A DNA stretch of 39,313 nucleotides from a virus, in the UHGV virus genome UHGV-0145328; one strand, 5' to 3'. The translations under genes were made by a program, and so were the position numbers. The notes under the pieces were generated by a model, which saw only the letters and a program-made list of their open reading frames with translations, ran no database searches and was not told the DNA's origin. Of the stretch, positions 50 through 36,498 are shown piece by piece (position 1 is the first letter of the stretch; the number at the start of each line of letters is the position of its first letter).

Positions 50-586
50 ATGCGTCGCGCTAACGATCCGCAACGGCGAGAAAAAATTATCCAGGCCACG
101 CTGGAGGCGGTGAAACTTTACGGAATACATGCTGTTACACACCGCAAAATTGCTGCCCTTGCCGGGGTGCCGTTGGGATCGATGACCTACTATTTTTCAG
201 GAATTGATGAGTTGTTGCTGGAGGCGTTCAGCCGTTTTACTGAGATCATGTCCCGGCAATATCAGGCATTTTTTAGCGATGTTAGTGATGCTCCAGGCGC
301 ATGCCAGGCTATCACCGATATGATCTACAGCTCACAGGTCGCAACGCCGGATAATATGGAGCTGATGTACCAGCTCTACGCGCTGGCTAGCCGAAAACCG
401 CTCTTAAAAACGGTAATGCAAAACTGGATGCAGCGCAGTCAACAAACGCTCGAACAATGGTTTGAACCCGGAACCGCCCGCGCGCTTGATGCGTTTATTG
501 AGGGGATGACGCTGCATTTTGTCACCGACCGTAAGCCGCTATCACGCGAGGAGATTTTGAGGATGGTTGAGAGGATTGCTGGGTAG
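50..586 (+). CDS. rcdA: TetR-family transcriptional regulator RcdA (YbjK)
   Basis: 178-aa product from the ATG at 50 ([35 protein letters not shown]...) matches my recollection of E. coli RcdA/YbjK; N-terminal TetR-type HTH. Confidence 0.9.
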
Positions 587-589
587 TAG

Positions 590-616
590 ATAAATTTCAG
601 GCAACAAAAAACCCAT
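590..616. repeat. attL core (27-bp direct repeat ATAAATTTCAGGCAACAAAAAACCCAT)
   Basis: Identical 27-mer recurs at 36472..36498; it lies just after the rcdA stop and next to the integrase gene. Confidence 0.85.
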
Positions 617-634
617 TTATGTAAACGGGTTAAT

Positions 635-672
635 GAAAACAATAAGTTAGGTTAAAAACAATAAGTTAGGTT
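635..672. repeat. Tandem 19-bp direct repeat (G/AAAAACAATAAGTTAGGTT x2); candidate integrase arm-type binding sites
   Basis: Two adjacent copies identical at 18 of 19 positions, between the attL core and the int 3' end. Confidence 0.45.
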
Positions 673-690
673 GGTGGTCAGTGGTGGTTA

Positions 691-1743
691 TTACGGGGTA
701 ATGCCAACCGCTGCCGCCACTTTGTCGCCACTTGGCAGCGTTGCCAGAGGATTGAAACGGAGCGCCGTTTCTAGATGATCCGGTGCCAGATGTGCGTAAC
801 GCATAGTCATTTTTATATCGTGGTGTCCGAGAATTTTTTGTAAGGCCAGAATGTTTCCACCCGACATCATGAAGTGCGCCGCAAACGTATGGCGCAGAAC
901 GTGTGTGAGTTGACCGCGAGGGAGCACGATAGACGTTTTTTCCATCACGGATAAAAATTGAAAATAGCAGTCTGTGAAGAAATTGAACCCATCAAGCGCC
1001 ATGATCTCTTCGTAAAGCTCTTTACTGATAGGGATGCTTCTGTTTTTCTTCCCCTTCGTTCTGACAAAGGTAATTCGGTATTTGGTCACCTGTGAGCGGG
1101 TAAGATTTACGGCTTCACGCCAGCGTGCGCCTGTGCTTAAGCATATCTTAACTACCAGTGCCAGAATTGGGTCCTGACGTTTGCAATCAGCCAGCAATTC
1201 AACAATCTGCTCATGGGTAAGCCATGCCATCTCTTTTTCTGCGATGGTGAATTTTCGCATGTTCTCCAGTGGGTTCGGATACGACCATTCGCCCAGACGG
1301 GATAGTTCGCTAAAAACACTACTTAGATAGCTTTGCTCCAGGTTAATGGTGACCGGGCTTGCTCCTTTCTTCCATTTCTCGCTGAAGTAGATCTCGCCTG
1401 TCAGGCGTTTATCTCGATAGTGGGCAAACATTTTAGAGGTGAGATCGGTTGCAAGAGGATTGCCCAGAGCGTCAACCATCAACAGCAATTTGTCATAGAC
1501 ATGCTGCCCAGCTGTCAGAGATTTACCATGTAGTTTGAACCATAGCTCAACCACGTCTTTCAGTGTTCGACGATCCACTGATTCACCCAGCCAGGGCTTT
1601 GCTTCGGTTTCTTCCATCGTGTGGCGCTCAAAAGCCAGTGCTTCGCCTTTGGTGGCGAATTGTTTACGCACACGACGCCCACTTCGTCCGGCGGGGTAAC
1701 ATTCGCAAAGCCATTTCCCTGTGGTTAGTTTTCGTACTGCCAT
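691..1743 (-). CDS. int: Tyrosine integrase (P2 Int family)
   Basis: 350 aa; C-terminal catalytic region with HxxR and a terminal Tyr (…LRHTFAAHFMMSGGNILALQKILGHHDIKMTMRYAHLAPDH…); adjacent to attL. Confidence 0.9.
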   Translation of the reverse strand: MAVRKLTTGKWLCECYPAGRSGRRVRKQFATKGEALAFERHTMEETEAKPWLGESVDRRTLKDVVELWFKLHGKSLTAGQHVYDKLLLMVDALGNPLATDLTSKMFAHYRDKRLTGEIYFSEKWKKGASPVTINLEQSYLSSVFSELSRLGEWSYPNPLENMRKFTIAEKEMAWLTHEQIVELLADCKRQDPILALVVKICLSTGARWREAVNLTRSQVTKYRITFVRTKGKKNRSIPISKELYEEIMALDGFNFFTDCYFQFLSVMEKTSIVLPRGQLTHVLRHTFAAHFMMSGGNILALQKILGHHDIKMTMRYAHLAPDHLETALRFNPLATLPSGDKVAAAVGITP

Positions 1744-1825
1744 AAAAAGCCCTCATATCAGAGGGCTAAATTTAACTGTATATGTAACCAGTAATCAATG
1801 TGTGATTACTATGAAACATACATTG

Positions 1826-3502
1826 CTAAGCAACATGTAGTTCATCGTTGGCGGAAGTGGCTGCTTTGCGCTCCTGCTCAATAGCTAGAGACTCTCTATA
1901 TTCTTTCGCCTCTGCAAACATTGTCCAGTGGGCGTTGATGTTCATGTCTTCAATAACTGATTTGATTTCTTTTAAATTTACGTTAAAAAACTCTTTTCGT
2001 GAGTTAATTTTATTGACCTGCTTTTCGTTGAAAACTTTATGCAGATGGTTTTCTAATGATGGTGCATCATCACTATAAATCATCGCATGAACATCGAACG
2101 AAAAAGGAACACTAGCATCTCCGAGTTCACGAACACGATCAAGTGGTTCAAGGCGGCGTGTCATTCCAATTTTATATACATCTTCGCCAAATGAACCAAT
2201 ATTACTAATGATATAGACGTGGCCTGATCTGGTTTGTTGAGCCATAGAAATAGCTCGTTGATTTTTAGCTTCAGCTTCTTCATATTTTAACTGTAGTTCA
2301 GCTATTTTTTGCTCTAAAGCTAAGCGTTGTTCTTCATTTGCAAGCATAAGTTCTTTCGTTGCTTTATTTATAGCTTGCTGAATAGCTTTTTCTTCTTTTT
2401 CAGCTTCTTTTATCGCTTTTTCATATTCTCTACGAGCTCTTTCCTCTTCACGAAGCTGTTCTTTAATCCTTCTTTGCTCTTCTTTTTCTTCGAGCATAAT
2501 TTCATTAACTGCTACACCCCATTTTAGCTCGTTGAGTCTTGCCTGAAGATAGATGTCACTTATTTTTGCGGACCTAAAGGCAGAGCCATTGTAATTTACT
2601 AGTTGAAATGCATCTTTTATTTCTTGGGAAAGTTTTCCAAAATTGTTGTGTTTGACTTTTGATAAAATACTGTCAACTCTTCCATTGAAGGCATCCAAAA
2701 CAAAGTTTATGGCAGTATTACGCCTGTTTTGCTCAACATAATCACACGAAGCAGCTTTATTAGTTTTTATTAATGATTTGGTTAACTCTCTGGCTTTTTG
2801 TAATTCCTTGCCTGCATCTGTAAATTCATAATTTTCTGCCAGCTCATCAAGTACACTACGGTTAGGGATGATCCATTCATCACCATAACCTTCAATTTTA
2901 TTTTTCATTGATTTTGCAACTGCTTCATATTTTTCTGCAAACTCTTTAGCTTCATATGCTGAACCAGCAATCTCCTTTGCTCTTTCTTCTGCATCAGAAA
3001 TAATTTTTACTGCATTGTCATTAGCATTTGAGATTAGCTCATTTGCTTTATTATTAGCATTATCAAGACGTTCTTTGGCTTTCAGGCGTGCATCGCGAGC
3101 GTCTTTGGTGATTGCTATAGCTTCGCTATTAGCGTTGCTTATTGTCATCTGAGCTTGATAATTTGCTTCGTTTACTGTTTTAGCCGCCTTAATTTGGGCT
3201 TCATCTATTTTTTGCTTGGCTATTGAGTCCGCATTTTTTATCTTATTCTCTGCATCCATTACTGCGCTGTGCAATTCTTCGTATTGCCACAATGGTGCTG
3301 CTCGCCCTTCAAGCTCTGATAATTCTCGTACGGTCTGTGCTAGTTTTTCTTGATTTTCAATCAGTTGGTTAGAAAGGGCTATGTTGTTAGCTGTCAGGTT
3401 ATCTATAGCCGCTTTGTGTTTTTTACTTTGTTTAAATAATATTACAGCTAGAACAGGGGCGAGAAATGCTAATAAGAGTATAACGATGGCAAATGAATTC
3501 AT
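1826..3502 (-). CDS. Membrane-anchored coiled-coil protein with DUF4041-like region and C-terminal T5orf172 (GIY-YIG-like) domain; cargo gene
   Basis: N-terminal hydrophobic helix (SFAIVILLLAFLAPVLAVILF); long K/E/A-rich heptad regions; C-terminal block GHVYIISNIGSFGEDVYKIGMTRRLEPLDRVRELG...VPFSFDVHAMIYSDD typical of T5orf172; visibly AT-rich; co-oriented with cI and int. Confidence 0.7.
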   Translation of the reverse strand: MNSFAIVILLLAFLAPVLAVILFKQSKKHKAAIDNLTANNIALSNQLIENQEKLAQTVRELSELEGRAAPLWQYEELHSAVMDAENKIKNADSIAKQKIDEAQIKAAKTVNEANYQAQMTISNANSEAIAITKDARDARLKAKERLDNANNKANELISNANDNAVKIISDAEERAKEIAGSAYEAKEFAEKYEAVAKSMKNKIEGYGDEWIIPNRSVLDELAENYEFTDAGKELQKARELTKSLIKTNKAASCDYVEQNRRNTAINFVLDAFNGRVDSILSKVKHNNFGKLSQEIKDAFQLVNYNGSAFRSAKISDIYLQARLNELKWGVAVNEIMLEEKEEQRRIKEQLREEERARREYEKAIKEAEKEEKAIQQAINKATKELMLANEEQRLALEQKIAELQLKYEEAEAKNQRAISMAQQTRSGHVYIISNIGSFGEDVYKIGMTRRLEPLDRVRELGDASVPFSFDVHAMIYSDDAPSLENHLHKVFNEKQVNKINSRKEFFNVNLKEIKSVIEDMNINAHWTMFAEAKEYRESLAIEQERKAATSANDELHVA

Positions 3503-3522: not shown

Positions 3523-4119
3523 TTAATTCGAGACTATTGTACTTCTTATACAAGCAACCACTTCAATATCAGAAAATGCACATTCAAAGCTATTCTCTGC
3601 TGTTGTAATTTTAATCATTCCTTTAGGAAGCCTTGTGATTTTTCGAATGGAATAGGTTCCGTCGATATTGATTAACCAGTTTCCATCAAGTACTTCAGAA
3701 AATTTTTGATCACAAATGTATGTGACGAGTCCATCCTGAACAACAATTGGTGATGAAAGGTTTGCAGGAAGAAATGATGAATCGAAGACATATGAACCGT
3801 CTTCAATCATTTTGCCTGCGGCAAGGCGAAACTTAACAAGCTCTTCTGTAGCTGCTGTCAGCGAGCTTTGCTTAAGGCCTTGTCCGGTAGTTAACCATTT
3901 GAGGGAGGTTCCTGTTTCAAGAGCACATTGGATTATCCAGTCAGCAGGAAATGTATCCCGCAAATACCTGTTCGCTAGTGTGCTTTTTGATACTTCCAAG
4001 TGATCAGCTAAAGCCTGTCGTGTCGTAAAGCCATAGGCTTCGACTAATCGCTCAATCGCAGCCTTACCACCTTTATTGGGATTTATTTTGATCTCACTTG
4101 GGTACTTTGATGTTGACAT
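3523..4119 (-). CDS. cI: Immunity repressor CI (186-type)
   Basis: 198 aa with N-terminal HTH-like region, divergent from apl/cII; position between int and apl matches the 186 lysogeny module. Confidence 0.75.
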   Translation of the reverse strand: MSTSKYPSEIKINPNKGGKAAIERLVEAYGFTTRQALADHLEVSKSTLANRYLRDTFPADWIIQCALETGTSLKWLTTGQGLKQSSLTAATEELVKFRLAAGKMIEDGSYVFDSSFLPANLSSPIVVQDGLVTYICDQKFSEVLDGNWLINIDGTYSIRKITRLPKGMIKITTAENSFECAFSDIEVVACIRSTIVSN

Positions 4120-5808: not shown

Positions 5809-6042
5809 ATGCGTAATATTGAAACCCTCACGACTAAAACCGGACCGGATGACGCAGGGCTTAATATTTTACTGACAGAGGCTCGTCTGGAAGAACGCCG
5901 GGCAAGGGCTGAAGCAATGGCTGCTCGCCTTGATAGCCTGGCGTGTCATATCTCATCCCGCCAGCTAAACCACGTGGAAGCGGCAGAACTGCTGCGCGTG
6001 ACTGCTGAAGCAATCCAGAACGAAGCGCAGGAGATCCACTAA
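5809..6042 (+). CDS. Early-region hypothetical protein
   Basis: ATG at 5809 preceded by AGGAGAA; the ORF track used an upstream TTG. Confidence 0.55.
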   Translation: MRNIETLTTKTGPDDAGLNILLTEARLEERRARAEAMAARLDSLACHISSRQLNHVEAAELLRVTAEAIQNEAQEIH

Positions 6043-6269
6043 TGGCTGATGCAATGGATCTCGTACAGCAGCGCGTTGAAGAAGAACGCCAGCGCCATAT
6101 CCGTGCAGCCCGTGCCAAATCACCGGGCGTGTCACGCGTACTTTGCATTGAATGTGAAGCGCCAATTCCGCCAGCACGACGCCGCGCCATTCCGGGAGTG
6201 CAGCTTTGCATTACCTGTCAGGAAATCGCAGAGCTGAAAGGCAAACATTACAACGGAGGTGCTGTATGA
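6042..6269 (+). CDS. TraR/DksA-family C4 zinc-finger protein
   Basis: 75 aa with CIECEAPIP…CITCQ four-Cys motif, typical of phage TraR-like proteins. Confidence 0.7.
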   Translation: MADAMDLVQQRVEEERQRHIRAARAKSPGVSRVLCIECEAPIPPARRRAIPGVQLCITCQEIAELKGKHYNGGAV

Positions 6270-7123
6270 GCACCATCCTGAAATGGGCGGGAAATAAAAC
6301 CGCCATTATGCCAGAACTGAAAAAATACCTTCCTGCTGGCCCGCGACTGGTTGAACCTTTCGCGGGTTCCTGTGCTGTGATGATGGAAACGGATTATCCC
6401 AGCTATCTGGTTGCGGATATTAATCCTGATTTAATCAACCTCTATAAAAAGGTTGCCGCTGATTGTGAATCGTTTATATCTCGCGCCAGAGTTTTATTTG
6501 AGATCGCAAACAGGGAGGTGGCTTATTACAACATAAGGCAGGAGTTTAACTGCTCAACTGAAATTACTGATTTCATGAAAGCGGTATATTTCCTGTATCT
6601 CAATCGTCACGGTTACCGTGGTTTATGTCGCTATAACAAGAGCGGGCATTTCAACATTCCCTACGGTAATTATAAAAATCCGTATTTCCCTGAAAAAGAA
6701 CTTCGCACATTTGCAGAAAAAGCCCAGCGAGCAACGTTTATCTGCGCCAGCTTTGATGAAACGCTGGCGATGTTGAAGGCGGGAGATGTGGTGTATTGCG
6801 ATCCGCCATATGACGGTACGTTTTCCGGCTATCACACTGATGGTTTCACTGAAGATGACCAGTATCACCTGGCATCCGTTCTTGAACATCGGTCATCAGA
6901 AGGACATCCGGTCATTGTTTCTAACAGTGACACATCCCTGATCCGTTCGCTGTATCGCAATTTTACTCACCACTATATCAAGGTAAAACGCAGCATCGGT
7001 GTGGCAGCTGGCGAGGGTAAATCAGCAACAGAAATCATTGCTGTTTCCGGGCCGCGCTGCTGGATGGGATTTGATTATTCGCGTGGCGTGGATAGTTCTG
7101 CCGTGTACGGAGTACGTGCATGA
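6266..7123 (+). CDS. dam: DNA adenine methyltransferase (Dam-like, GATC type)
   Basis: [11 protein letters not shown]… N-terminus, FAGSCAV AdoMet-binding motif and DPPY catalytic motif; start overlaps the stop of the preceding gene. Confidence 0.85.
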
Positions 7124-9534
7124 GTCATGCCGATATGAACAACTGCTGCGGCTTTAACGAGGCTGCCGCAGCATTCTCATGGAACAGCCCGAAAAAGGCC
7201 ATTAACCCTTATCTGGACCCGGCGGAAGTTGCGCCGGTTTCTACGCTTTCAAACCTGATCACTCTGTACGCTGCCGATAACGAGCAGGAACAACTGCGCC
7301 GCGAGGCACTGAGTGATCAGGTCTGGGAGCGTTATTTCTTTAATGAATCACGTGATCCTGTCCAGCGCGAAATGGAGCAGGATAAGCTCATTAGCCGGGC
7401 AAAGCTGGCGCATGAGCAGCAGCGTTTTAATTCAGACATGGTCATTCTGGCGGACGTCAACGCCCAGCCTTCCCATATCAGCAAGCCGCTGATGCAACGT
7501 ATTGAATACTTCAGCAGCCTGGGCAGGCCAAAGGCTTATTCCCGCTATTTACGTGAGACGATTAAGCCATGTCTGGAACGACTGGAGCATGTACGCGACA
7601 GTCAGCTATCTGCATCTTTTCGCTTTATGGCAAGCAATGAAGGGCTGGACGGCCTGCTGATCCTGCCTGAAATGAGTCAGGATCAGGTGAAACGCCTGTC
7701 CACCCTGGTAGCTGCGCATATGAGTATGTGCCTTGATGCAGCTTGTGGTGATTTGTATGCCACCGATGACGTTAAGCCAGAAGAAATCCGCAAGACATGG
7801 GAAAAGGTGGCAGCGGAAACCCTGCGTCTGGATGTCATCCCACCTGCGTTTGAGCAACTCCGTCGGAAAAGAAACCGCCGTAAACCCGTGCCCTATGAAC
7901 TCATTCCGGGTTCGCTGGCGCGTATGTTGTGCGCCGACTGGTGGTATCGGAAATTATGGAAGATGCGTTGCGAATGGCGGGAAGAGCAGTTGCGCGCTGT
8001 TTGCCTGGTCAGCAAAAAAGCATCTCCTTATGTCAGCTATGAAGCCGTGATGCATAAACGTGAGCAGCGCCGTAAGTCGCTGGAGTTTTTCCGTTCTCAT
8101 GAACTGGTGAACGAAGACGGCGACACGCTGGACATGGAGGATGTGGTAAACGCCAGCAGCAGCAACCCTGCGCATCGCCGCAATGAGATGATGGCCTGTG
8201 TTAAAGGTCTGGAGCTTATCGCGGAAATGCGCGGTGACTGCGCCGTTTTCTACACTATCACCTGTCCGTCGCGTTTCCATTCCACGCTAAATAACGGCAG
8301 ACCAAACCCGACCTGGACAAACGCGACGGTAAGACAAAGCAGCGATTATCTGGTCGGCATGTTTGCTGCATTTCGTAAGGCGATGCACAAAGCCGGGTTG
8401 CGCTGGTATGGCGTGCGGGTGGCTGAGCCGCATCATGATGGCACAGTTCACTGGCACCTGTTGTGTTTCATGCGCAAAAAAGACCGCCGTGCCATCACTG
8501 CATTACTGCGTAAGTTTGCCATCCGTGAAGACCGCGAGGAGCTGGGCAATAACACTGGGCCGCGCTTTAAGTCTGAGTTGATTAACCCGCGCAAAGGAAC
8601 GCCGACAAGCTACATCGCGAAATATATCAGTAAGAACATTGACGGTCGTGGTCTGGCTGGCGAGATCAGCAAGGAAACGGGTAAATCTCTGCGTGATAAC
8701 GCTGAATACGTGAATGCCTGGGCGTCTCTGCATCGTGTTCAGCAATTCCGCTTCTTTGGTATTCCGGGGCGTCAGGCTTACCGTGAACTTCGCTTGCTGG
8801 CTGGTCAGGCGGCAAGGCAACAGGGTGACAAAAAAGCAGGTGCGCCGGTACTGGATAACCCGCGTCTTGATGCCATTCTGGCTGCTGCTGATGCTGGTTG
8901 TTTTGCCACCTACATCATGAAGCAGGGCGGCGTACTGGTTCCCCGTAAATATCACCTCATCAGAACCGCTTATGAAATCAACGAAGAGCCGACCGCCTAT
9001 GGCGATCACGGCATTCGTATTTATGGCATCTGGTCACCCATTGCAGAGGGCAAGATCTGCACTCATGCAGTGAAGTGGAAAATGGTTCGTAAAGCCGTTG
9101 ACGTTCAGGAGGCGGCAGCCGACCAGGGCGCTTGCGCCCCTTGGACTCGTGGCAATAACTGTCCCCTTGCTGAAAATTTGAACCAACAAGGGAAAGACAA
9201 ATCAGCTGATGGAGATACCAGAACGGATATCACCCGCATGGATGACAAGGAGTTGCACGATTACCTGCACAGTATGAGCAAAAAAGAGCGCCGGGAACTG
9301 GCTGCAAGGTTACGCCTGGTGAAACCGAAACGGCGTAAAGACTACAAACAGCGAATTACAGACCATCAGCGACAGCAGCTCGTCTATGAACTGAAGTCCA
9401 GAGGATTTAATGGCAGCGAGAAAGAGGTCGATTTACTCCTTCGCGGCGGCAGTATTCCGTCAGGAGCAGGCCTGCGTATCTTCTATCGGAACCAGCGTTT
9501 GCAGGAAGATGATAAGTGGCGAAACCTGTATTAA
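7120..9534 (+). CDS. A: Replication initiation protein A (rolling-circle HUH endonuclease, P2 gpA-like)
   Basis: 804 aa containing [11 protein letters not shown] (HUH motif); position after the early genes. Confidence 0.85.
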
Positions 9535-9628
9535 TTACGCGGGTTAACAATTCGTGCTCTTAATAATACCAGGCATATCAGGCTGATGAACGTAAAAAAA
9601 CGTTTTACATCAGTAAGATTATTATATA

Positions 9629-9644
9629 CTGTAAATATAAACAG
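9629..9644. promoter_or_regulatory. LexA box (CTGT-N8-ACAG)
   Basis: CTGTAAATATAAACAG matches the SOS-box core exactly, about 45 bp upstream of the ATG at 9688. Confidence 0.7.
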
Positions 9645-9687
9645 TGGTTATGTATACAGTATTGCTTGTGGTGTCATAGGAGGAAAG

Positions 9688-9876
9688 ATGCAGGACTATT
9701 TTTTGGAGTCTTTGAAGCTCCAGCGCATTGATTTTTTTCTTAAGCTTGTAGCGGCTAGTGAGTGTAGTGATGAAGAGAAGGGGCTGGCTTTGCAGTGGGT
9801 TTCTGAACTGACAGATGAACTCATGGCAAAAATCAGAACCCACGAATACAACCGCTCAATGGATGTCATCAGCTGA
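9688..9876 (+). CDS. Small protein in LexA-controlled operon (possible Tum/antirepressor N-terminal part)
   Basis: 62 aa from the ATG at 9688 with strong AGGAGGAAAG RBS, downstream of the LexA box. Confidence 0.5.
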   Translation: MQDYFLESLKLQRIDFFLKLVAASECSDEEKGLALQWVSELTDELMAKIRTHEYNRSMDVIS

Positions 9877-9886
9877 GGTGACTTTT

Positions 9887-10120
9887 ATGCGCATTGAAAT
9901 AATGATCGATAAAGAGCAGAAGATTAGCCAGTCTACCCTGGACGCCCTTGAATCCGAGCTTTACCGCAATCTGCGCCCCCTATATCCAAAAACGGTAATT
10001 CGCATCCGCAAAGGTAGCTCTAACGGTGTGGAACTGACCGGACTGCAACTGGACGAAGAAAGAAAACAAGTGATGAAAATTATGCAGAAGGTGTGGGAAG
10101 ACGACAGCTGGCTGCATTGA
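9887..10120 (+). CDS. DinI-like protein
   Basis: 77 aa (MRIEIMIDKEQ…LDALESELYRNL…MQKVWEDDSWLH) with the size and pattern of DinI; RBS GAGGTG upstream. Confidence 0.7.
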   Translation: MRIEIMIDKEQKISQSTLDALESELYRNLRPLYPKTVIRIRKGSSNGVELTGLQLDEERKQVMKIMQKVWEDDSWLH

Positions 10121-10233
10121 TTTTGTCAATAGACGCTTGTTTTTACTAATCAAAAAGGGTTACATATGAGTGAGAGGCGATGTCAATCAGATATCGCCTT
10201 GTTTTTTGTCAAGAAAAGAATAATAGGCTAAAA

Positions 10234-10911
10234 ATGAAAATTAATAATGTAGCGTTACCAATATCTCTTGCTGTAATCCTAACTGGTTGCGTGCCACATG
10301 CTTCTAACCGAAATATCACTGCTATTGAAGTGGTGAAGCCTGCTATTGGGCAAAGTGCTACCGCCTACATGGGCGATCCCATTATCACATCTGCTACTGG
10401 ATTTAAAACGGACGTACTAGAACTTGGTGCGGCTAATGGTGCATTGTCTTCTATCGCTGCTGGTACATATTGCAGTGAGGGGAATGGAATTTACCGCAAT
10501 TATCATAACCCTCAAGCTGTTGCGTTAAAAAATCTCTATGGGCAAATCGGTAACTATGTTGATTATGTTAGTTACGATGCTGCAAAAAATGAGATATCAC
10601 CGCCAAATGGTACTTCTTATACTGCATCAGAAATTTCTATCAAACGTGTTCCTGATGGGCTGTGTCGAGTTAGTAACTCATTGGTTAAGACTATCGAATA
10701 CAATGGAAATGCAGGCGGTGTAATGAAGTTCACCTATCGTGAATTTGCAAACGATATGGCTCGTGCAGCATTTACAACAGATTTTTCTGTAGATTCTAAG
10801 GGAAGTGACGTTATCGCTTACAAAGGTGCCAAGTTCAAAGTGAACAAGGCTGATAACTCGTCTATTTCTTATACAATTATTTCTGGCTTTGACAAGGCTG
10901 TCACGTTCTAG
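10234..10911 (+). CDS. Lipoprotein of unknown function (moron)
   Basis: Signal peptide plus lipobox (MKINNVALPISLAVILTGC); AT-rich; followed by a hairpin terminator. Confidence 0.65.
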   Translation: MKINNVALPISLAVILTGCVPHASNRNITAIEVVKPAIGQSATAYMGDPIITSATGFKTDVLELGAANGALSSIAAGTYCSEGNGIYRNYHNPQAVALKNLYGQIGNYVDYVSYDAAKNEISPPNGTSYTASEISIKRVPDGLCRVSNSLVKTIEYNGNAGGVMKFTYREFANDMARAAFTTDFSVDSKGSDVIAYKGAKFKVNKADNSSISYTIISGFDKAVTF

Positions 10912-11013
10912 GTTTCACGCTTACTGAGTATGTTACGATTTTGCACATTCTGCATAAACGCGCATGTCTATGCTGCATGAGATCGCATGATCGTTTGAGG
11001 ATCTTTTGTGTTA

Positions 11014-11040
11014 AGGCCCGCCAGTTCTGGCGGGCTTTTG
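11014..11040 (+). terminator. Rho-independent terminator
   Basis: GCCCGCC / GGCGGGC stem with 6-nt loop followed by TTTT. Confidence 0.6.
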
Positions 11041-11084
11041 CGTAGATCATGCAGGTGCATGAAAACCACTACATAAAGCGGGCA

Positions 11085-11103
11085 GGCGTGGCGGGGATAC
11101 GAG
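11085..11103. other. Candidate cos cohesive-end site
   Basis: GGCGTGGCGGGGATACGAG resembles the 19-nt P2/186 cohesive end as I remember it (GGCGTGGCGGGGAAAGCAT for 186); recalled, not verified. Confidence 0.35.
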
Positions 11104-11255
11104 CGCGCGTTAAGCCATATAAGAGTTATATATTGATTTGATTGCTGGACATACATACAGTATCGCTCTATCATCTAATAAATCTTAGGGTATTTGACAA
11201 TGTTTGGATAAAATGGAACCTAACTTATTCATAATCCGCTAAACAGGGATGTCAG

Positions 11256-12170
11256 ATGCCATACCAATTGGTAGAGCTTAGCCCCGTAGCTAACGATCTT
11301 GAACAGTTAGGAACCAAAGAGAAGTTTTGGTTCTATTTCTCCGATGACACTGTAAATTTGCAGTTGTTTAAGTACTCTAGGCCAGGTACTGGCGAGCATT
11401 GGTCTGAAAAGTGTGCTGCTGAGTTATGTCATTTGCTTAACATTCCACATGCTAGCTATGATTTGGCGCGATACAATGGTCGATTCGGTGTGGTGACTCA
11501 GAATATCATTCCATCTGGTTTCCGGATGGTAATGGGAAATGAAGTGCTTCACAGTTCGACATTCGATTATCCTGGGCCTTTACAAGCCGGGGAAAAGCCG
11601 GTAAGGGTCAGAGAACACACTGTCACAAGGGTCTTGGGTTGTTTAGATAGGGAATCTATCAAGCCTCCTCCGAGTGTATATGATCTAACCGGGCTAAATG
11701 CAGCAGATGTATTTTGTGGATATTTGATGCTCGATGCACTTGTGAGTAATCAAGATCGCCACCATGAAAATTGGGCAATCATGCTTAACAATGAAACTGG
11801 TGAGCAGTTTTTGTGTCCAACATACGATCATGCCGCTAGTTTAGGAAGGGAGATGTTAGATGATGAGCGTAACGAACGGCTTAATACTAAAGATAAAAAT
11901 CGACAAATCCCATGTTTTGTAAGAAAAGCTCGCTCTGAGCTATTCAAAGCAAAAACTGATAAAAAGCCCTTGCTGACTGTTGAAGCATTTCAACATGCAG
12001 TTGAAGGGAGAGTTGCCGCTCGCGACCATTGGTTAGGTAAGTTGAGCGTTTTAACAGAAGATTCCATTACAGATGTGTTTAACCAAGTGCCTTCATCGTG
12101 TATATCCGACAGTGCACGTAGATTTGCAACGTTAATGGTAATGGAAAATCGCAGAAGGTTACTAGAATGA
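11256..12170 (+). CDS. HipA-like Ser/Thr kinase core-domain protein
   Basis: 304 aa with LGTKEKFWF (cf. HipA VAGAQEKT), VSNQDRHHENWAIM (cf. HipA catalytic GATDGHAKNFSV) and CPTYDHAASLG (cf. HipA TPFYDIIS); AT-rich cargo. Confidence 0.6.
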   Translation: MPYQLVELSPVANDLEQLGTKEKFWFYFSDDTVNLQLFKYSRPGTGEHWSEKCAAELCHLLNIPHASYDLARYNGRFGVVTQNIIPSGFRMVMGNEVLHSSTFDYPGPLQAGEKPVRVREHTVTRVLGCLDRESIKPPPSVYDLTGLNAADVFCGYLMLDALVSNQDRHHENWAIMLNNETGEQFLCPTYDHAASLGREMLDDERNERLNTKDKNRQIPCFVRKARSELFKAKTDKKPLLTVEAFQHAVEGRVAARDHWLGKLSVLTEDSITDVFNQVPSSCISDSARRFATLMVMENRRRLLE

Positions 12171-12907
12171 CTAATACAAACTCCGTTTACGTCGCATGGC
12201 AGGCACCAGATACCAGAGACTGGCATGTTGTTGGTAACTTGCAAGAGCGCAAATCGGGGTATGTTTTCAGGTATACCAAAGGTGCTCTTAAATCTTCTAA
12301 ATTTACAAAGTTTAGCGGCATGAGTGATGTTCGTGAAACTTATGTATCGGAAGAATTGTTTCCTCTTTTTAAAAATCGCCTTTTATCACCGAGACGTCCA
12401 GAGTATCCGAGTTTCATTAAATGGCTTGGATTTGAAGAAGATAAGGTAAATCCTATCGATATTCTTGCTCGCTCGGGAGGCTTACGAAGCACTGATCAGC
12501 TGCAGATTTTCAAAAAAATTGATTTTGATTCTGATGGTAACTTTGAGCATTTTTTCTTCTTACATGGACTTGGTTACTTGAATAGCTTAGCTAATGCTCG
12601 TGTATCTGAATTGAAACCGGGGCAAATTTTGCGTCTTTGCTTGGATCTTCAAAATGAATACGATGGGGATGCTGTTGTCGTTCGTGCAGATAAACCAGCT
12701 GAAATCGTTGGTTACTGCCCTAGGTATTTAAGTAATGACATCAAGAAGATGTTATTGGATGATCCAAAATCAATCACTTTAACGGTCGAAAAGATTAGCG
12801 ATGATGCTCCTCATAACTATCGGTTATTATGTAAATTATCAGGGGTACTAAGCCAAGCCTGTCAATCGACGCTGATTCCTCAAGATGAGTTTGAACCTAT
12901 TGAGTAA
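12167..12907 (+). CDS. Partner protein of the kinase; N-terminus possibly HipA N-subdomain-like (HipS-like), C-terminal domain unknown
   Basis: 246 aa; start overlaps the kinase stop (ATGA); N-terminal VYVAWQAPDTRDWHVVGNLQERKSGYVFRYTKGAL loosely resembles the HipA N-terminus. Confidence 0.5.
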   Translation: MTNTNSVYVAWQAPDTRDWHVVGNLQERKSGYVFRYTKGALKSSKFTKFSGMSDVRETYVSEELFPLFKNRLLSPRRPEYPSFIKWLGFEEDKVNPIDILARSGGLRSTDQLQIFKKIDFDSDGNFEHFFFLHGLGYLNSLANARVSELKPGQILRLCLDLQNEYDGDAVVVRADKPAEIVGYCPRYLSNDIKKMLLDDPKSITLTVEKISDDAPHNYRLLCKLSGVLSQACQSTLIPQDEFEPIE

Positions 12908-12913
12908 ATGAAG

Positions 12914-12937
12914 AAAAGCCACCAAACGGTGGCTTTT
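12914..12937. terminator. Bidirectional hairpin terminator between convergent genes
   Basis: AAAAGCCACC-AAAC-GGTGGCTTTT stem-loop with A/T runs on both sides, between the cassette and the portal gene. Confidence 0.65.
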
Positions 12938-12941
12938 CTTA

Positions 12942-13982
12942 TTATGGGGCTATATCTAGCGAGTAGGTATCAAACCGTATCGCCTCCTTGCCAAGCCAAT
13001 CATTCATCTCCTGTAATCGCTTTTGTAGTGGCATTAGCTCATTTCGGACGAATACACGGCTTGCCTTCTCCACATCCCCAAACCCCCCGACATTATTAGG
13101 CATAATCCCCATCATTTGCGGTGGCACACGATGCGCCGCCATCATGTCATCCCGGCTCACGTTCTTGATATTCAAAAACTCATCCTTCGCTGCGACCTCT
13201 GACAACGGGATAATCTGAAGCCCGTCCTTTTTGCCGTTAGGCGAGTACATAAACAGGTTGCGGAAGTTGCCTGGACCTTTGGCGCTTTTCATCGCGTTGC
13301 GGAGGTTGTTCACATCCTCCTGGTTCTGCGCGGCATCGGTCATATACATGATGAAGCCTGCATGACTGCCGTTAATGTAATACTTGCGGCGGAACAGCGT
13401 GGCAGACTCGTTGAGCAGGGCGGATGGAATAGCAGAAAGATAACCGGGCAGGCCGTAGATCTCCTGGTTGATGTCCGGTTCCATCAGATGAAAGATGCTG
13501 CCTTTCGTGAACTGATATGGCTGCGTGGTCATACCGTATTGCACAAACCAGTAGGTATCCAGGTCTAACCCGCGTCGGGTGTATTTTGCCAGGGCAGGTT
13601 CAAGGGCGATAACTTCACCGAAGCGGTTCGTGCGTTTCTCCAGGTAGGCGTTACCAAATACCAGATAGTCCTGCACAAAACGCGAAAAAGCCTGCTGGCT
13701 GAGCAGCGGGTGAGGGATGTAGGTGCTGGTCAGAATGTTGCACTTTACTGCAATCGGGGAACTATGATGCACGGCAGCGCGGAAGGTGCGCGCCAGTCCG
13801 TCAAAGCTGACGGGCGGTTCATACCAGCGGTCCATCTGTACGCATTCCACATAATCCAGCAGTTCTCGGCGGTCCAGAACAGGAACGGGATCGCCGAAGC
13901 TGAATGCTTCGGCTGTAGTTTGACTTTTAAGCTGGATCTGTTTCGTCGCCGCAGCGCGGTTCTTCTTACTCTTTCCCATCAA
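12942..13982 (-). CDS. Q: Portal protein (P2 gpQ-like)
   Basis: 346 aa; size and position next to the terminase large subunit match P2 Q. Confidence 0.85.
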   Translation of the reverse strand: MMGKSKKNRAAATKQIQLKSQTTAEAFSFGDPVPVLDRRELLDYVECVQMDRWYEPPVSFDGLARTFRAAVHHSSPIAVKCNILTSTYIPHPLLSQQAFSRFVQDYLVFGNAYLEKRTNRFGEVIALEPALAKYTRRGLDLDTYWFVQYGMTTQPYQFTKGSIFHLMEPDINQEIYGLPGYLSAIPSALLNESATLFRRKYYINGSHAGFIMYMTDAAQNQEDVNNLRNAMKSAKGPGNFRNLFMYSPNGKKDGLQIIPLSEVAAKDEFLNIKNVSRDDMMAAHRVPPQMMGIMPNNVGGFGDVEKASRVFVRNELMPLQKRLQEMNDWLGKEAIRFDTYSLDIAP

Positions 13983-15745
13983 AAAATCTCCACAATATTG
14001 CTGGTATTGGCGGATTCGCCCTGCAGCGGTTCGTTAAACAGTGCGTGCATCGTTGCCCAGGCCAGATCGGCGTGGCTGGCTTCTTCGCTGCGGCTGGCTT
14101 CATAGGTCGGGCGGTTGCCACTGGCGGTGGTGGCGCGACGGATTGCCATAAAGGACTGCGCTATGTCGGTGTGTCCGGCGTCAAACTCCAGACGGCGGTG
14201 GCTGATAATGTCGTAGGCCTTGAGTACCAGGGCGTTTTTAACGTTGGGGTTGTAGACAAACTCCCGGACGGCAGGAAAAAACGCTTTCACGTTCTCGTAA
14301 ACCCCGTGACCAACGCCGGTTGAGTCGATACCGATATAGGTCACGTTGTACTGTTCGGTCAGTTTTTTGATGGCGTCAGCCTGGGCGCGGAAGTCCATTC
14401 CGCGCCACTGGTGACGCTCAAGAATGCGGAACTTACCGCCCGGCACGGCTGGCGGCGCCACCACCACGCATCCGGCGCTGTCGCCGTTCTGCGTACCTTT
14501 CGCCGGGTCATATCCGATCCACACTTCGCGCCAGCCAAACGGGCGCAGGGCCAGTGCATGAAAGTCGGTCCAGACTTCCCAACTGTCCACCATGCACGCC
14601 TGCAGCTCGCTGAGCGGGAACACAGACGCGAGATCGTCCACGAACTCACACATCAGCAGGTTCTGGTATTCGTCCGGGCTGTACTCCATGCGCAACTGGT
14701 CGAGGTCGAACAGGTTACAGCCGCCGCGCACCGCATCTTCCACAGTGACTATCTGGCGGTACTGCCCGTCTGCGCACAGCAGGCCGGGGGCCAAATTGCT
14801 GTGGGACAGGTCGATGTCCACCTTATCGGCTTTGTTGCGCCCTCGGTTGAACAGTGCACCGGACCAGAACGGATAAGCACTGTGTGTCAGGCTGGATGGC
14901 GTGGAAAAATAGGTTTGTCGCCATTTTTTGTGAATAGCCATACCGGAAGCCACTTTGCGCAGCTCCTGGAATTTCGGTATCCAGAAATATTCATCCAGAT
15001 ACAGGTTGCCGTGGTAACTCTGGGCCGTGCGGGCATTGGTGCCGAGGAAGTACAGTGTGGCCCCGTTAGGAAGCACCATCGGATCGCCTTTCAGCTCCAC
15101 CTCCACTTCTTTGGCGAAGTCGATGATGTACTGCTTAAAGACGTGGGCCTGAGCCTTGCTGGCGGAAAGGAAAATCTGGTTACGCCCGGTTAGCAGGGCG
15201 TCAATCAGGGCTTCACGGGCAAAATAGAAGGTCGCGCCGATCTGGCGTGACTTCAGCAGGTTGCGGATGCGGTTGGTTTTTCCGGCTTCCCACCAGTGGC
15301 GCTGGTAGTTGAACATGGAGGAATGGAAGATTTCTTCCAGCTTCTCAATCTGTTCATCGGTGAAAACGTTCTTTTCCGGCTGACGGCGCGGGCCTTTGTT
15401 GCGGTTGGCGACGTTAGGGTTTAAGTCGGCTTCGTTGCCGCCATTGTTAAACTTGCCGATCCGCGCATGGCGCTCAGACTGGCGCGCCAGCAGGTCAATC
15501 TCTTTGAAATCTTTCCCTTCTTTGTGCTCCTTCATAATGAGCTGACAGTAGCGTGCGGCGGTGGTGAGCTGCATCTGATCCAGCGGCCCATAGTCACCCC
15601 ACTTGTCGCGTTTTTTCCAGCTGTGAACGGTTGCAACTTTCTCGCCCAGCATTTCAGCAATGCGGGCGACGCGGTATCCCTGAAAGTACAGCAGCATGGC
15701 CTGCCGACGGGGATCGAGATCTGCGGGTGTCAGTGTGGTGTTCAT
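13979..15745 (-). CDS. P: Terminase large (ATPase) subunit (P2 gpP-like)
   Basis: 588 aa, divergent from the O-N-M-L operon as in P2. Confidence 0.85.
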   Translation of the reverse strand: MNTTLTPADLDPRRQAMLLYFQGYRVARIAEMLGEKVATVHSWKKRDKWGDYGPLDQMQLTTAARYCQLIMKEHKEGKDFKEIDLLARQSERHARIGKFNNGGNEADLNPNVANRNKGPRRQPEKNVFTDEQIEKLEEIFHSSMFNYQRHWWEAGKTNRIRNLLKSRQIGATFYFAREALIDALLTGRNQIFLSASKAQAHVFKQYIIDFAKEVEVELKGDPMVLPNGATLYFLGTNARTAQSYHGNLYLDEYFWIPKFQELRKVASGMAIHKKWRQTYFSTPSSLTHSAYPFWSGALFNRGRNKADKVDIDLSHSNLAPGLLCADGQYRQIVTVEDAVRGGCNLFDLDQLRMEYSPDEYQNLLMCEFVDDLASVFPLSELQACMVDSWEVWTDFHALALRPFGWREVWIGYDPAKGTQNGDSAGCVVVAPPAVPGGKFRILERHQWRGMDFRAQADAIKKLTEQYNVTYIGIDSTGVGHGVYENVKAFFPAVREFVYNPNVKNALVLKAYDIISHRRLEFDAGHTDIAQSFMAIRRATTASGNRPTYEASRSEEASHADLAWATMHALFNEPLQGESANTSNIVEIF

Positions 15746-15791
15746 GGCACAAACCTACAGCCTTGAATGAAGGCTTTCCCCGCCTGCGGTT

Positions 15792-15809
15792 TGTGTGGTT
15801 GTCGGTACA
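15792..15809. promoter_or_regulatory. Late-promoter dyad TGT-N12-ACA (Ogr-dependent), P/O divergent region
   Basis: TGTGTGGTTGTCGGTACA between the divergent P and O genes. Confidence 0.55.
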
Positions 15810-15887
15810 AATACCGCGCATTGTTTCACTGCCTCCATCACCGCAACCATAAGGCTCCAGTAAGTTTTTTCTAACGGAGCACGGCTC

Positions 15888-16721
15888 ATGACAGTGAAAG
15901 CAAAGCGTTTTCGCATCGGGGTGGAAGGTGCCACCACCGATGGACGCGAAATCCAGCGTGAATGGCTGGAACAGATGGCAGCCAGCTACAACCCGGCGGT
16001 GTATACCGCGCTGATTAACCTTGAGCACATCAAGTCTTATCTGCCGGACAGCACCTTTAACCGCTACGGCAAGGTGACGGCGCTGTTTGCTGAAGAAATC
16101 ACGGAAGGTCCGCTGGCAGGCAAGATGGCGCTGTATGCCGACGTTGAGCCAACGGAGTCCCTGGTGGAGCTGGTGAAAAAAGGCCAGAAATTATTCACCT
16201 CTATGGAAGTCAGCCCGAAGTTCGCTGATACGGGCAAAGCCTACCTAGTCGGCCTGGCTGCCACTGATGACCCTGCCAGTCTGGGCACTGAAATGCTGAC
16301 ATTCAGCGCCAGTGCAGCCCATAACCCGCTGGCAAACCGCAAGCAGAATCCTGCCAATCTCTTTACCGCTGCAGAGGAAACGGTGATCGAACTGGAAGAA
16401 ATCCAGGAGGACAAACCGTCCCTGTTTGCCCGTGTCACGGCGCTGTTCACCAAAAAAGAGCAGTCCGATGACGCCCGGTTCTCTGATGTGCATAAGGCCG
16501 TGGAACTGGTCGCCACTGAGCAGCAGAACCTGAGTGCGCGCACCGAAAAATCCCTGTCTGAGCAGGAAGAACGCCTGTCTGAGCTGGAGACTGCCCTGCA
16601 GGCACAGCTGACCGCCTTTAACGAACTGGTGGACAAGCTGAGCCATGAAGACAGCCGCCAGGACTACCGCCAGCGTGCAACAGGCGGTAACGCCCCCGCT
16701 GACACTCTGACCAATTGCTGA
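15888..16721 (+). CDS. O: Capsid scaffolding protein (P2 gpO-like)
   Basis: 277 aa, first gene of the rightward capsid operon, acidic coiled-coil C-terminal half. Confidence 0.85.
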   Translation: MTVKAKRFRIGVEGATTDGREIQREWLEQMAASYNPAVYTALINLEHIKSYLPDSTFNRYGKVTALFAEEITEGPLAGKMALYADVEPTESLVELVKKGQKLFTSMEVSPKFADTGKAYLVGLAATDDPASLGTEMLTFSASAAHNPLANRKQNPANLFTAAEETVIELEEIQEDKPSLFARVTALFTKKEQSDDARFSDVHKAVELVATEQQNLSARTEKSLSEQEERLSELETALQAQLTAFNELVDKLSHEDSRQDYRQRATGGNAPADTLTNC

Positions 16722-16737
16722 TGGAGCACAAAACCTG

Positions 16738-17796
16738 ATGAAGAAGAATACCCGCTTTGCTTTTAACGCTTACCTGCAGCAGCTGGCGCGTCTGAACGGT
16801 GTGGCAGTTGAAGAACTGTCCAGCAAGTTCACCGTGGAGCCGTCCGTGCAGCAGACGCTGGAAGACCAGATCCAGCAATCCGCCGCATTCCTGACGCTGA
16901 TTAACGTCACGCCAGTGACTGAGCAGTCTGGTCAGTTGCTGGGGCTGGGTGTTGGCAGCACCATTGCCGGAACCACTGATACCACCGCAAAAGAGCGTGA
17001 GCCTGTCGATCCGACGCTGATGGTCGATGTGGAATACAAATGCGAGCAGACCAACTTTGACACGGTGCTGACCTACGCGAAGCTGGACCTGTGGGCGAAG
17101 TTTCAGGATTTCCAGGTGCGTATCCGTGACGCCATCGTGAAACGTCAGGCACTGGACCGCATCATGATCGGCTTTAACGGCGTGAAGCGTGCGAAAACCT
17201 CCAACCGTAGTGAAAACCCGCTGCTGCAGGATGTGAACAAAGGCTGGCTGCAGAAAATCCGTGAGGATTCACCGGATCACGTCATGGGCAGCACCACCAC
17301 GGGCGGCGAAACCACACCGGGTGCGGTGAAAGTCGGGAAAGGTGGCGAATATGCCAACCTGGACGCTGTGGTGATGGATGCGGTCAATGAGCTTATCGAC
17401 GTGGTCTACCAGGACGATGACGATCTGGTGGTGATTTGCGGTCGTGAACTGCTGTCTGACAAGTATTTCCCGCTGGTCAACAAAGAGCAGGAAAACAGTG
17501 AAAAACTGGCTGCCGATATGATTATCAGTCAGAAACGCATGGGCGGTCTGCAGGCCGTGCGTGCGCCGTTCTTCCCGCCGAATGCGCTGCTGATCACCCG
17601 TCTGGATAACCTGTCCATCTACTGGCAGGAAGACACCCGCCGCCGTTCAGTTATCGACAACCCGAAACGTGACCGGATTGAAAATTTTGAATCCGTTAAC
17701 GAAGCCTACGTGGTTGAGGACTACCGCTGCGCCGCACTGGTGGAAAACATCCAGATTGGCGACTTCAGCGCCGCCGCAGCAGAAACCGGAGCGTAA
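16738..17796 (+). CDS. N: Major capsid protein (P2 gpN-like)
   Basis: 352 aa, position after the scaffold gene. Confidence 0.85.
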   Translation: MKKNTRFAFNAYLQQLARLNGVAVEELSSKFTVEPSVQQTLEDQIQQSAAFLTLINVTPVTEQSGQLLGLGVGSTIAGTTDTTAKEREPVDPTLMVDVEYKCEQTNFDTVLTYAKLDLWAKFQDFQVRIRDAIVKRQALDRIMIGFNGVKRAKTSNRSENPLLQDVNKGWLQKIREDSPDHVMGSTTTGGETTPGAVKVGKGGEYANLDAVVMDAVNELIDVVYQDDDDLVVICGRELLSDKYFPLVNKEQENSEKLAADMIISQKRMGGLQAVRAPFFPPNALLITRLDNLSIYWQEDTRRRSVIDNPKRDRIENFESVNEAYVVEDYRCAALVENIQIGDFSAAAAETGA

Positions 17797-17799
17797 TTC

Positions 17800-18450
17800 A
17801 TGAGCCTGAGTCCCGCACGGCAGCATCGCCTGCGCGTTCAGGCTGAACAGGCCGCTCGTGAGGGCGGCAGTGTTCGCCACGCGTCGGGCTATGACCTGAT
17901 GCTGCTGCAACTGGCGGAAGACCGCCGCCGTCTCAAGGGCGTTCAGTCCACGGTGAAAAAAGCGGAAATAAAGGTGGAGCTGCTGCCGAAATATGCCGCC
18001 TGGGCGGAGGGCGTCCTGGCTGCCGGAGGCGCTCAACAGGATGACGTGCTGATGTACGTGATGCTGTGGCGCATTGATGCCGGAGATTATGCCGGGGCGC
18101 TGGAGATCGGGCGTCATGCCCTGCGTCATGGCTGGGTGATGCCGCTGGGTAACCGCAACGTGCAGACCGTGCTGGCAGAGGAAATGGCAGATGCAGCGCA
18201 GAGCGCAATGCTTGCCGCCACCGGCTTTGATGCCGATCTGTTGCTGCAGACGCTGGAGCTGACAGACGGTCTGGATATGCCGGACCAGTCACGGGCGCGT
18301 CTGCATAAAGCGATTGGCGCTGTCCTGAGTGAAAGCAATCCGGCGTCCGCCCTTAATCATCTCAACCATGCGTTACAGCTCGATCCCCGCTGTGGCGTGA
18401 AAAAAGACAAACAGCAGCTGGAGCGCAGACTGCGCAATGACAGCCGCTGA
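17800..18450 (+). CDS. M: Terminase small (endonuclease) subunit (P2 gpM-like)
   Basis: 216 aa, position after N. Confidence 0.8.
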   Translation: MSLSPARQHRLRVQAEQAAREGGSVRHASGYDLMLLQLAEDRRRLKGVQSTVKKAEIKVELLPKYAAWAEGVLAAGGAQQDDVLMYVMLWRIDAGDYAGALEIGRHALRHGWVMPLGNRNVQTVLAEEMADAAQSAMLAATGFDADLLLQTLELTDGLDMPDQSRARLHKAIGAVLSESNPASALNHLNHALQLDPRCGVKKDKQQLERRLRNDSR

Positions 18451-20862: not shown

Positions 20863-21256
20863 AGCGGTGCCTTATGTCCGCAATAACCCGGACAAACTGC
20901 ATCTGTTTGTGGATAACGGTTCGCTGGTTGCCACGGGGGCCAGCTCCATGTCATGGGAGTACCGCTATACCCTGAACGTGGTGATAGAGGATTTCAGCGG
21001 CGACCAGAATCTGCTGATGGCCCCGGTTTTGCTGTGGCTTCGGGATAACCAGCCCGATGCCATCAATAACCCGGCGTTACGGGAAAAGCTATTCACCTTT
21101 GAGGTGGATATTTTGCGCAACGATGTCTGTGATATCAGCCTTAACCTGCAACTGACGGAACGTGTGCTGGTCAGCACTGACGGCAGTGTGTCGAGCGTTG
21201 AAGCTGTAGCAGAACCCGATGAACCTGAAGAAATGTGGACGGTGAAACGTGGCTGA
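20825..21256 (+). CDS. R: Tail completion protein (P2 gpR-like)
   Basis: Synteny and size; GTG start at 20825 chosen to avoid overlap with lysC; start is uncertain. Confidence 0.7.
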   Translation: MNKPQSLRHALNKAVPYVRNNPDKLHLFVDNGSLVATGASSMSWEYRYTLNVVIEDFSGDQNLLMAPVLLWLRDNQPDAINNPALREKLFTFEVDILRNDVCDISLNLQLTERVLVSTDGSVSSVEAVAEPDEPEEMWTVKRG

Positions 21257-21695
21257 ACTGCAGAAGGTGGACGACTGGCTGAGTGCCTTGCTGGCGAATC
21301 TGGAACCAGCCACGAGAAGCCGCATGATGCGCCAGCTGGCGCAGGAACTGCGCCGGACACAGCAGCAGAATATCAGGATGCAGCGCAATCCAGATGGCAG
21401 CAGTTATGAACCGCGCAGGGTAACAGCACGCAGCAAGAAGGGGCGCATCAAACGTCAGATGTTTGCAAAGCTGCGCACCACAAAATACCTGAAAACTGCC
21501 GCCAGCGCCGATTCTGCCAGCGTACAGTTTGAAGGCAAGGTGCAGCGTATTGCCCGTGTTCACCATTACGGCCTGCGTGATCGCGTCAGTCGCAAAGGAC
21601 CGGAGGTCCGTTACGTAGAGCGCCGCCTGCTGGGTGTAAATGATGATGTTGAGGCAATGACCCGCGACATGATTCTGCAATGGCTGGCGGGGTGA
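21249..21695 (+). CDS. S: Tail completion protein (P2 gpS-like)
   Basis: 148 aa, position after R. Confidence 0.75.
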   Translation: MAELQKVDDWLSALLANLEPATRSRMMRQLAQELRRTQQQNIRMQRNPDGSSYEPRRVTARSKKGRIKRQMFAKLRTTKYLKTAASADSASVQFEGKVQRIARVHHYGLRDRVSRKGPEVRYVERRLLGVNDDVEAMTRDMILQWLAG

Positions 21696-28119: not shown

Positions 28120-28122
28120 TTA

Positions 28123-28524: not shown

Positions 28525-28551
28525 CCCCGGTTTTTATTCAGGGGATTGATC

Positions 28552-29118: not shown

Positions 29119-29166
29119 ATCAGCATTATTTTGATTATTCCTGCAAGCGGACAAATACCGTCATTT

Positions 29167-36471: not shown

Positions 36472-36498
36472 ATAAATTTCAGGCAACAAAAAACCCAT
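36472..36498. repeat. attR core (27-bp direct repeat)
   Basis: Identical to 590..616. Confidence 0.85.

Follow-up and report, generated by a model that had tools for sequence, protein, structure and literature searches.

Identity of the 19-mer

Where the packaged genome of a P2/186-type prophage begins, and which genes are placed at its tip, is the question raised by a 19-nt sequence in the DNA analysed here (the window, i.e. the whole 39,313-nt stretch of UHGV virus genome UHGV-0145328). This 19-mer, GGCGTGGCGGGGATACGAG at 11085–11103 on the + strand, occurs once in the window, with no further match at ≤ 3 mismatches. An earlier note, made from the sequence alone, had likened it to the cohesive end of P2 and 186, and comparison with the published ends bore this out: it agrees with the ends of 186 and PsP3 at 15 of 19 positions and with those of P2 and P4 at 14, its first 13 nt are those of 186 and PsP3, and the conserved cohesive-end head GGCG(A/T)GGCGGGG, which served as our test for a P2-family cos, is present. 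The GenBank records of 186 and PsP3 annotate nt 1–19 as cos, and by homology the same cut geometry would place the top-strand cut 5′ of G11085 and the bottom-strand cut after 11103, leaving 5′ overhangs. It is thus a well-supported prediction that the virion DNA opens with 11085 as nucleotide 1 and closes with base pair 11084.

In order to compare the flanks as well as the ends, we rebuilt the circular junctions of P2, 186, PsP3 and P4 by joining the ends of their GenBank records. All four align base for base with the window over a 55-bp core (Table 1), in which 29 nt of right-end flank, reading TGCATNAAAACC...AAGNGGGCN, precede the 19-mer, and 41–44 of the 55 positions are identical to the window. 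The core has the same layout in P2 and P4 (41–42 identical bases), whose 19-mer, GGCGAGGCGGGGAAAGCAC, differs from that of the window, whilst in 186 and PsP3 (Eganvirus) 23–24 of the 29 flank bases are shared and GCGCGC follows the 19-mer as it does here, the last six cohesive-end bases being AAGCAT in those phages and TACGAG in the window. According to PMC2231350, which cites Ziermann & Calendar (1990), a '55-bp cos sequence' is common to P2 and P4. Using a 54-position pattern composed only of the positions common to P2, P4, 186 and PsP3 around cos, we obtained a single match in the window, at 11056–11109 and with no mismatches, and none in 100 shuffles.

These results bear on the simplest objection, namely that 14–15 of 19 bases shared with the classical ends are a chance match between G-rich sequences. 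Loose matches to the conserved 13-mer head GGCGWGGCGGGGA are indeed not rare, four being found in the window at two mismatches vs 1.5 expected; there is, however, no second exact copy of it in the window, and the position of the 19-mer in the gene order is that of the 186 cos. The probability of such a coincidence is in our estimate negligible, and it is refuted by the junction alignment and the consensus pattern, as well as by the mapped cos of a close relative and the conservation profile (both below).

The close relative is the prophage of Escherichia coli HS, which is mitomycin-inducible and whose cos was reported as 5′-GGCGTGGCGGGGATACGAG-3′ at 926016–926034, identical to the sequence studied here (Zünd et al., 2021; PMC8008629, Supplementary Table 4). 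It was mapped by read start-site analysis/PhageTerm on DNA from induced cultures, not from purified virions, and the text of that paper gives no coverage step at the HS cos hinting at the direction of packaging. Likewise, the record of Salmonella phage SEN8 begins at GGCGTGGCGGGGATACGAG, and its genome announcement names the 19-mer as cos. As the last six bases differ from those of 186 and P2, the evidence for a 19-nt stagger comes from the HS and SEN8 reports and not from classical sequencing of the ends. The window, HS and Fels-2 agree at every position of the 75 nt preceding the 19-mer and of the 6 nt that follow it, and identity between the window and HS prophages is 97.7 % over 6001–11109 and 97.0 % over 13034–17907.

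Across our species loci L017–L094 the cohesive end reads GGCGTGGCGGGG-N-TACGAG, any of the four bases being found at position 13, whilst all other positions of the 19-mer are far better conserved.

The prophage and its packaging genes

Two exact copies of an att core, AACAAAAAACCCAT, as defined by mapping in E. coli HS, bound a unit genome of 35,882 bp between rcdA and ybjL, and what they enclose is apparently an intact, 35.9 kb prophage of the P2/186 (Fels-2-like) type. According to the ORF map and Pfam matches its gene order is that of 186 and PsP3, with A, DinI/Tum, an orf97-sized ORF, a terminator and then cos. The site accordingly lies between this A side and a divergent packaging and head cluster (Q-P / O-N-M), in which the scaffold gene O and the capsid gene N are found between P and M, all packaging and head genes are intact by Pfam and the genes for the cognate terminase subunits gpM and gpP are present (Table 1). 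The orf97-like ORF, the gene closest to the right end of the virion DNA, gave no Pfam or PADLOC match; in the 186 record, orf97 is noted to block 186 infection when expressed from a plasmid.

Table 1. Features in and around the predicted cohesive-end site (window coordinates)
Feature	Coordinates	Strand	Basis or score
att core copy 1, AACAAAAAACCCAT, prophage boundary	603–616	+	Core from E. coli HS mapping
Replication gene A	7120–9534		Upstream of cos; ORF map, Pfam
DinI/Tum-like gene	9815–10120		Upstream of cos; ORF map, Pfam
A-side cargo ORF, 243 aa, 732 bp	10180–10911	+	Length and position as 186 orf97
Conserved cos island, 151 bp, − 124 to +26 from the cut	10961–11111		Information content, homology breakpoints
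Intrinsic-terminator-like hairpin and T-run in cos island	11013–11040	+	− 22 kcal/mol, z = − 4.85
55-bp cos core: 29-nt right-end flank, 19-mer, YGCGCGC	11056–11110	+	Junction alignment
cosN, 19-nt cohesive-end sequence	11085–11103	+	Homology to annotated cos of 186, PsP3
Sigma-70-like promoter candidate, TGGACA-17-TATCAT	11146–11174	+	10/12 consensus positions
Putative small HipA-family kinase, HipI-like, PADLOC PDC-M03A	11256–12170	+	PADLOC 2e-122
HipN-like partner, PDC-M03B	12167–12907	+	PADLOC 7e-93
Bidirectional terminator hairpin (tQ/tW equivalent)	12911–12940		Fold energies
Portal protein gpQ	12942–13982	−	Pfam Phage_portal
Terminase large subunit gpP, cos-cutting enzyme	13979–15745	−	Pfam Terminase_5, Terminase_6N, Terminase_6C
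Terminase small subunit gpM	17800–18450	+	Pfam Phage_term_smal 2e-40
att core copy 2, AACAAAAAACCCAT, other prophage boundary	36485–36498	+	Exact direct repeat; core from E. coli HS mapping

The 19-mer could still be a relic, the prophage being defective or using another packaging site, so that the genes next to it would not lie at a genome end. One base of the 55-bp core lends itself to this reading, the seventh after the 19-mer (11110), which reads T in the window but C in the named relatives of the junction alignment (after CGCGCG in HS, SEN8 and Fels-2/RE-2010 as well), and a point defect elsewhere could make the prophage non-inducible. The same T is, however, found in several of the species-representative loci and in strain CFSAN061772. 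Furthermore, the 39 kb hold no second cos-like motif, the gap next to Q is a 34-nt terminator, the packaging and head genes are undamaged, and the whole prophage is colinear, at 95–98 % identity, with the inducible HS phage, which uses the identical site. The sequence around the 19-mer has moreover been kept across dozens of species, which argues for selection on function, and as such we consider a relic very improbable. Given flanks homologous to the cos of 186, PsP3, P2 and P4 in addition to the identity with the mapped HS cos, the identification as cos proposed in the earlier note stands: the 19-mer is, with high probability, the cohesive-end site (cosN) of a P2/186-type prophage with a replaceable cargo bay between cos and Q.

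Extent of the conserved cos region

In order to define how much sequence around the cut is conserved, we took 80 loci encoding relatives of Q, one genome per species, and found a cos core downstream of Q in 58 of them. A conservation profile of 65 distinct sequences, anchored at the cut and ungapped, showed information content near zero up to − 124, high through +26 and zero again thereafter. The limits of this cos island coincide with breakpoints of homology between the window and its relatives, which fall at 10960–10962 and at 11109, and the sequences flanking the island on either side are unrelated between phages. Nearly all of it belongs to the future right end of the virion DNA, only 7 nt being constrained to the right of the 19-mer.

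The long arm carries five GCATG/CATGC motifs (at 10962, 10975, 10985, 11048 and 11057), a motif that is ∼22-fold enriched in the island over the window background, and these are candidate terminase-binding repeats. Similar TGCAT repeats are seen upstream of cos in P2, 186 and PsP3. It is probable that the small terminase subunit gpM reads this arm. Also within the island is a hairpin followed by a T-run (Table 1), a positional counterpart of the 186 terminator t95b, which the 186 record places between orf97 and cos; it would end the A-side (DinI/orf97-like) transcript.

Two minor points emerged from the database records. Those of phages Midge and Cartapus end inside or near the cos island. In addition, two of the loci combine enterobacterial-type Q genes and P2-family cos cores with odd assembly labels, L076 (97 % Q identity) being labelled as a Bacillota MAG and L079, with the 186-type cos GGCGTGGCGGGGAAAGCAT, as Chryseobacterium sp.; both assignments probably reflect contamination or mis-binning.

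Comparison with the lambda cos helps to place these features. The lambda site (cosQ-cosN-cosB) consists of a staggered-nick site and an asymmetric recognition region, is used by a two-subunit terminase, yields 12-nt ends and has concatemeric DNA as its packaging substrate. The site in the window resembles it in the predicted staggered nick and the asymmetric flank, and differs in that its long arm and the terminase and portal genes lie on opposite sides of the cut. Cohesive ends of P2 are 19 nt long (PMC5557969), and both P2 and P4 package from circular DNA (PMC2231350, PMC5557969).

Cargo between cos and Q

The earlier note had placed the 19-mer ∼1.8 kb from the portal gene with a kinase cassette in between, and this was confirmed, as 1,838 nt separate the end of the 19-mer from the Q stop codon. 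Homology with Fels-2, RE-2010, KP12 and HS breaks off at 11109 and picks up again only within the 3′-terminal part of Q, at ∼12983–13063 (for HS at 13034 by megablast or 13003 by blastn); with SEN8 it ends at 11084 because the SEN8 record, which opens with the 19-mer, ends there. Each of these five relatives has different cargo genes between cos and Q, and among them unrelated cargo occurs in either orientation. Thus, HS phage 1, SEN8 and Fels-2/RE-2010 (Felsduovirus-type) share with the window the 19-mer, the gene order and the cargo bay, whereas the cargo itself is a hipIN-type cassette in the window, a 463-aa hypothetical protein in HS, a hypothetical protein plus an HNH endonuclease in SEN8, an AIPR-family protein in RE-2010 and, in the same position, a hypothetical protein in Fels-2. 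By contrast, 186 and PsP3 have cos only ∼175 nt from the portal stop codon and carry no cargo there. In P4, variable cargo (gop, beta) begins right after cos+7, as it does in the window, whilst in P2 the cargo (old, tin) is on the gpA side of cos with none on the Q side.

Among the 58 species-representative loci with a cos core, the cos-to-Q distance exceeds 300 nt in 50, with a median of 1,667 nt; it is < 300 nt in eight, 300–1000 nt in six and 1 kb or more in 44. The earlier note missed that phages of the P2/186-type lineage normally carry cargo here and that this has already been described. Foreign genes are on record between cos and the Q terminator of P2-like phages (PMC5694545), and the cos-to-Q interval has been recognized as a cargo hotspot since 1996 (Dodd & Egan, 1996, retrons Ec67/Ec86; Nakayama, 1999, phiCTX). 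The gpA–gpQ hotspot of P2-like phages was subsequently catalogued by Rousset et al. (2022; PMC9122126), and the P2 hotspot loci in their Table S5 include WP_001146828 together with WP_000185756 or WP_000185757. As such, this kind of site and the cargo hotspot are already known and the exact proteins already catalogued.

The variable block also takes in the last ∼25–30 codons of Q (12942–13033), so that the C-terminal tail of the portal protein seems to travel with the cargo. These tails differ between the window prophage, HS, Fels-2 and P2.

On the other side of cos the cargo varies as well. In other strains, this cos and the hipIN cassette are accompanied not by the orf97-like gene but by a 177-aa ORF (strain CFSAN061772) or by a SIR2 gene and an ATPase gene (strain 89-3156), and the orf97-like side (10119–10960) is found elsewhere with TIR-domain cargo on the Q side (11110–13033). 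Of 5,426 complete E. coli genomes, one (EC361) has both sides in the exact combination of the window. The two sides thus vary independently, and therefore cos divides into two bays what Rousset et al. (2022) treat as a single gpA–gpQ hotspot. This split is a refinement rather than a new kind of feature. A second refinement made here is that cos, as a functional element, has sharp limits and spans ∼150 bp, almost all of them on one side of the cut. Both leave the current understanding of P2-like phages unchanged. For annotation and cloning, these results predict the ends of the packaged genome and identify the kinase cassette as mobile cargo in a recognized defence hotspot.

The HipA-like and HIRAN-domain cassette

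The cassette consists of two genes overlapping by 4 nt (Table 1). The product of the first, named 'HipA domain-containing protein' in RefSeq (WP_001146828), carries the catalytic-loop motif SNQDRHHENW in its translation, with a Pfam HipA_C score of 20.7 bits, below the cut-off of 30.5. The second encodes a protein with a C-terminal Pfam HIRAN domain (1e-13) and, at its N-terminus, a weak HipS/Couple_hipA-like match (E = 0.014, below cut-off). In the hipIN organization described by Gerdes et al. (2021; PMC8262856), where toxin–antitoxin behaviour is only predicted, the gene of a small HipA-family kinase precedes that of a HIRAN-domain partner. With its putative kinase the cassette would have the same order, and the HipS-like N-terminal domain is weakly detectable. 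A defence or toxin–antitoxin role may be inferred for the cassette; a literature search found no experimental validation of anti-phage activity for this cassette, which PADLOC lists as a candidate (PDC-M03).

A promoter candidate precedes the kinase start codon by ∼80 nt, in a stretch that other E. coli strains with the cassette also carry. The number of matches in a promoter scan of the region was not above that in shuffled sequences, so it is a match to the consensus alone. At the other end, a gap of 34 nt separates the cassette from the Q stop codon and is taken up by a hairpin that is stable on both strands (− 21 kcal/mol on the + strand and − 20.4 kcal/mol on the − strand; z = − 8.6 and − 7.8). 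We also considered a cos placed beside the Q stop codon, and rejected it: this gap is the terminator hairpin, contains no cos motif and leaves no room for one.

The cassette is present in 21 of the 5,426 complete E. coli genomes, and in all three of the loci that we examined (CFSAN061772, 89-3156 and the window) it lies directly to the right of cos. With the kinase start codon 171 nt from the predicted left terminus, the earlier proposal that the HipA-like cassette sits in the cos-to-Q interval, and hence leftmost in the packaged genome, agrees with what we found, and we hold the assignment of cos, and with it this left-end location, to be correct with a high degree of confidence.

Predicted packaging and order of DNA entry

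On this basis, the following course of packaging can be proposed. After excision and replication of the prophage, the gpM + gpP terminase would recognize the ∼150 bp cos island (10961–11111), the long GCATG-rich arm of which is on the gpA side, introduce nicks at 11085 and 11103, with a stagger of 19 nt, and package one unit genome; cleavage at these positions in the window prophage is inferred from the sequence. The virion DNA would then start with 5′-GGCGTGGCGGGGATACGAG, followed by the HipA-like/HIRAN cassette, Q, P and the late genes, and would end after the orf97-like gene, at 11084. Between 11111 and the 3′ tip of Q lies a replaceable cargo bay, here occupied by a hipIN-type cassette (PADLOC candidate PDC-M03) that has a promoter-like site of its own and shares a bidirectional terminator with Q.

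The earlier note had further suggested that the cassette would be among the earliest genes to reach a newly infected cell, in which case its position might matter for its function. Its start codon is certainly close to the predicted left terminus, and the long cos arm lies on the right end; if this arm behaved like the lambda cosB, packaging would start from the right end and finish with the left, which on a last-in-first-out basis would be the first to exit. However, reviews give the right end as the one attached to the tail in P2 and 186, and the cassette would then enter last. To our knowledge, transcription-coupled or slow DNA entry has not been described for P2-type phages. A search of full-text literature returned nothing P2-specific on which DNA end enters first, a classical study of 1974 being outside its reach. 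A fixed polarity of ejection is disputed even for lambda (PMC10287942), and the bays of relatives hold unrelated cargo in either orientation. Moreover, cargo of this hotspot is taken to exert its effect from a resident prophage (PMC9122126), where the order of entry would have no relevance. Taken together, that the cassette is among the earliest genes to enter, with its position mattering for its function, seems to us possible but rather unlikely.

A broader combination of these ideas, in which the cohesive end is itself the substrate for swapping cargo (the bay starting 7 nt beyond the cut) and the genes at the tip lead injection and act before the genome circularizes, strikes us as improbable. 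If true, it would mean that a position at the tip of the genome is functionally selected rather than merely tolerated, and the HIRAN type of domain is known to bind DNA 3′ ends.

Other cargo in the prophage

The window prophage is ∼4.4 kb longer than the HS phage, owing to extra cargo and a different tail-fibre region (26000–29140). Two blocks that the otherwise colinear HS prophage lacks were seen outside the cos region. The first, at 1826–3502 on the − strand between the integrase gene (691–1743) and that of the CI repressor (3523–4119), encodes a 558-aa protein with DUF4041 and T5orf172/MUG113 domains that matches PADLOC PD-Lambda-1 (2e-120). The second is a 442-aa ORF at 21742–23070 on the − strand with no Pfam match, which is a PADLOC candidate (PDC-S59, 2e-197) and lies between a tail gene (21249–21695) and the baseplate gene V (about 23014), a position that we take to be that of the P2 orf30 hotspot.
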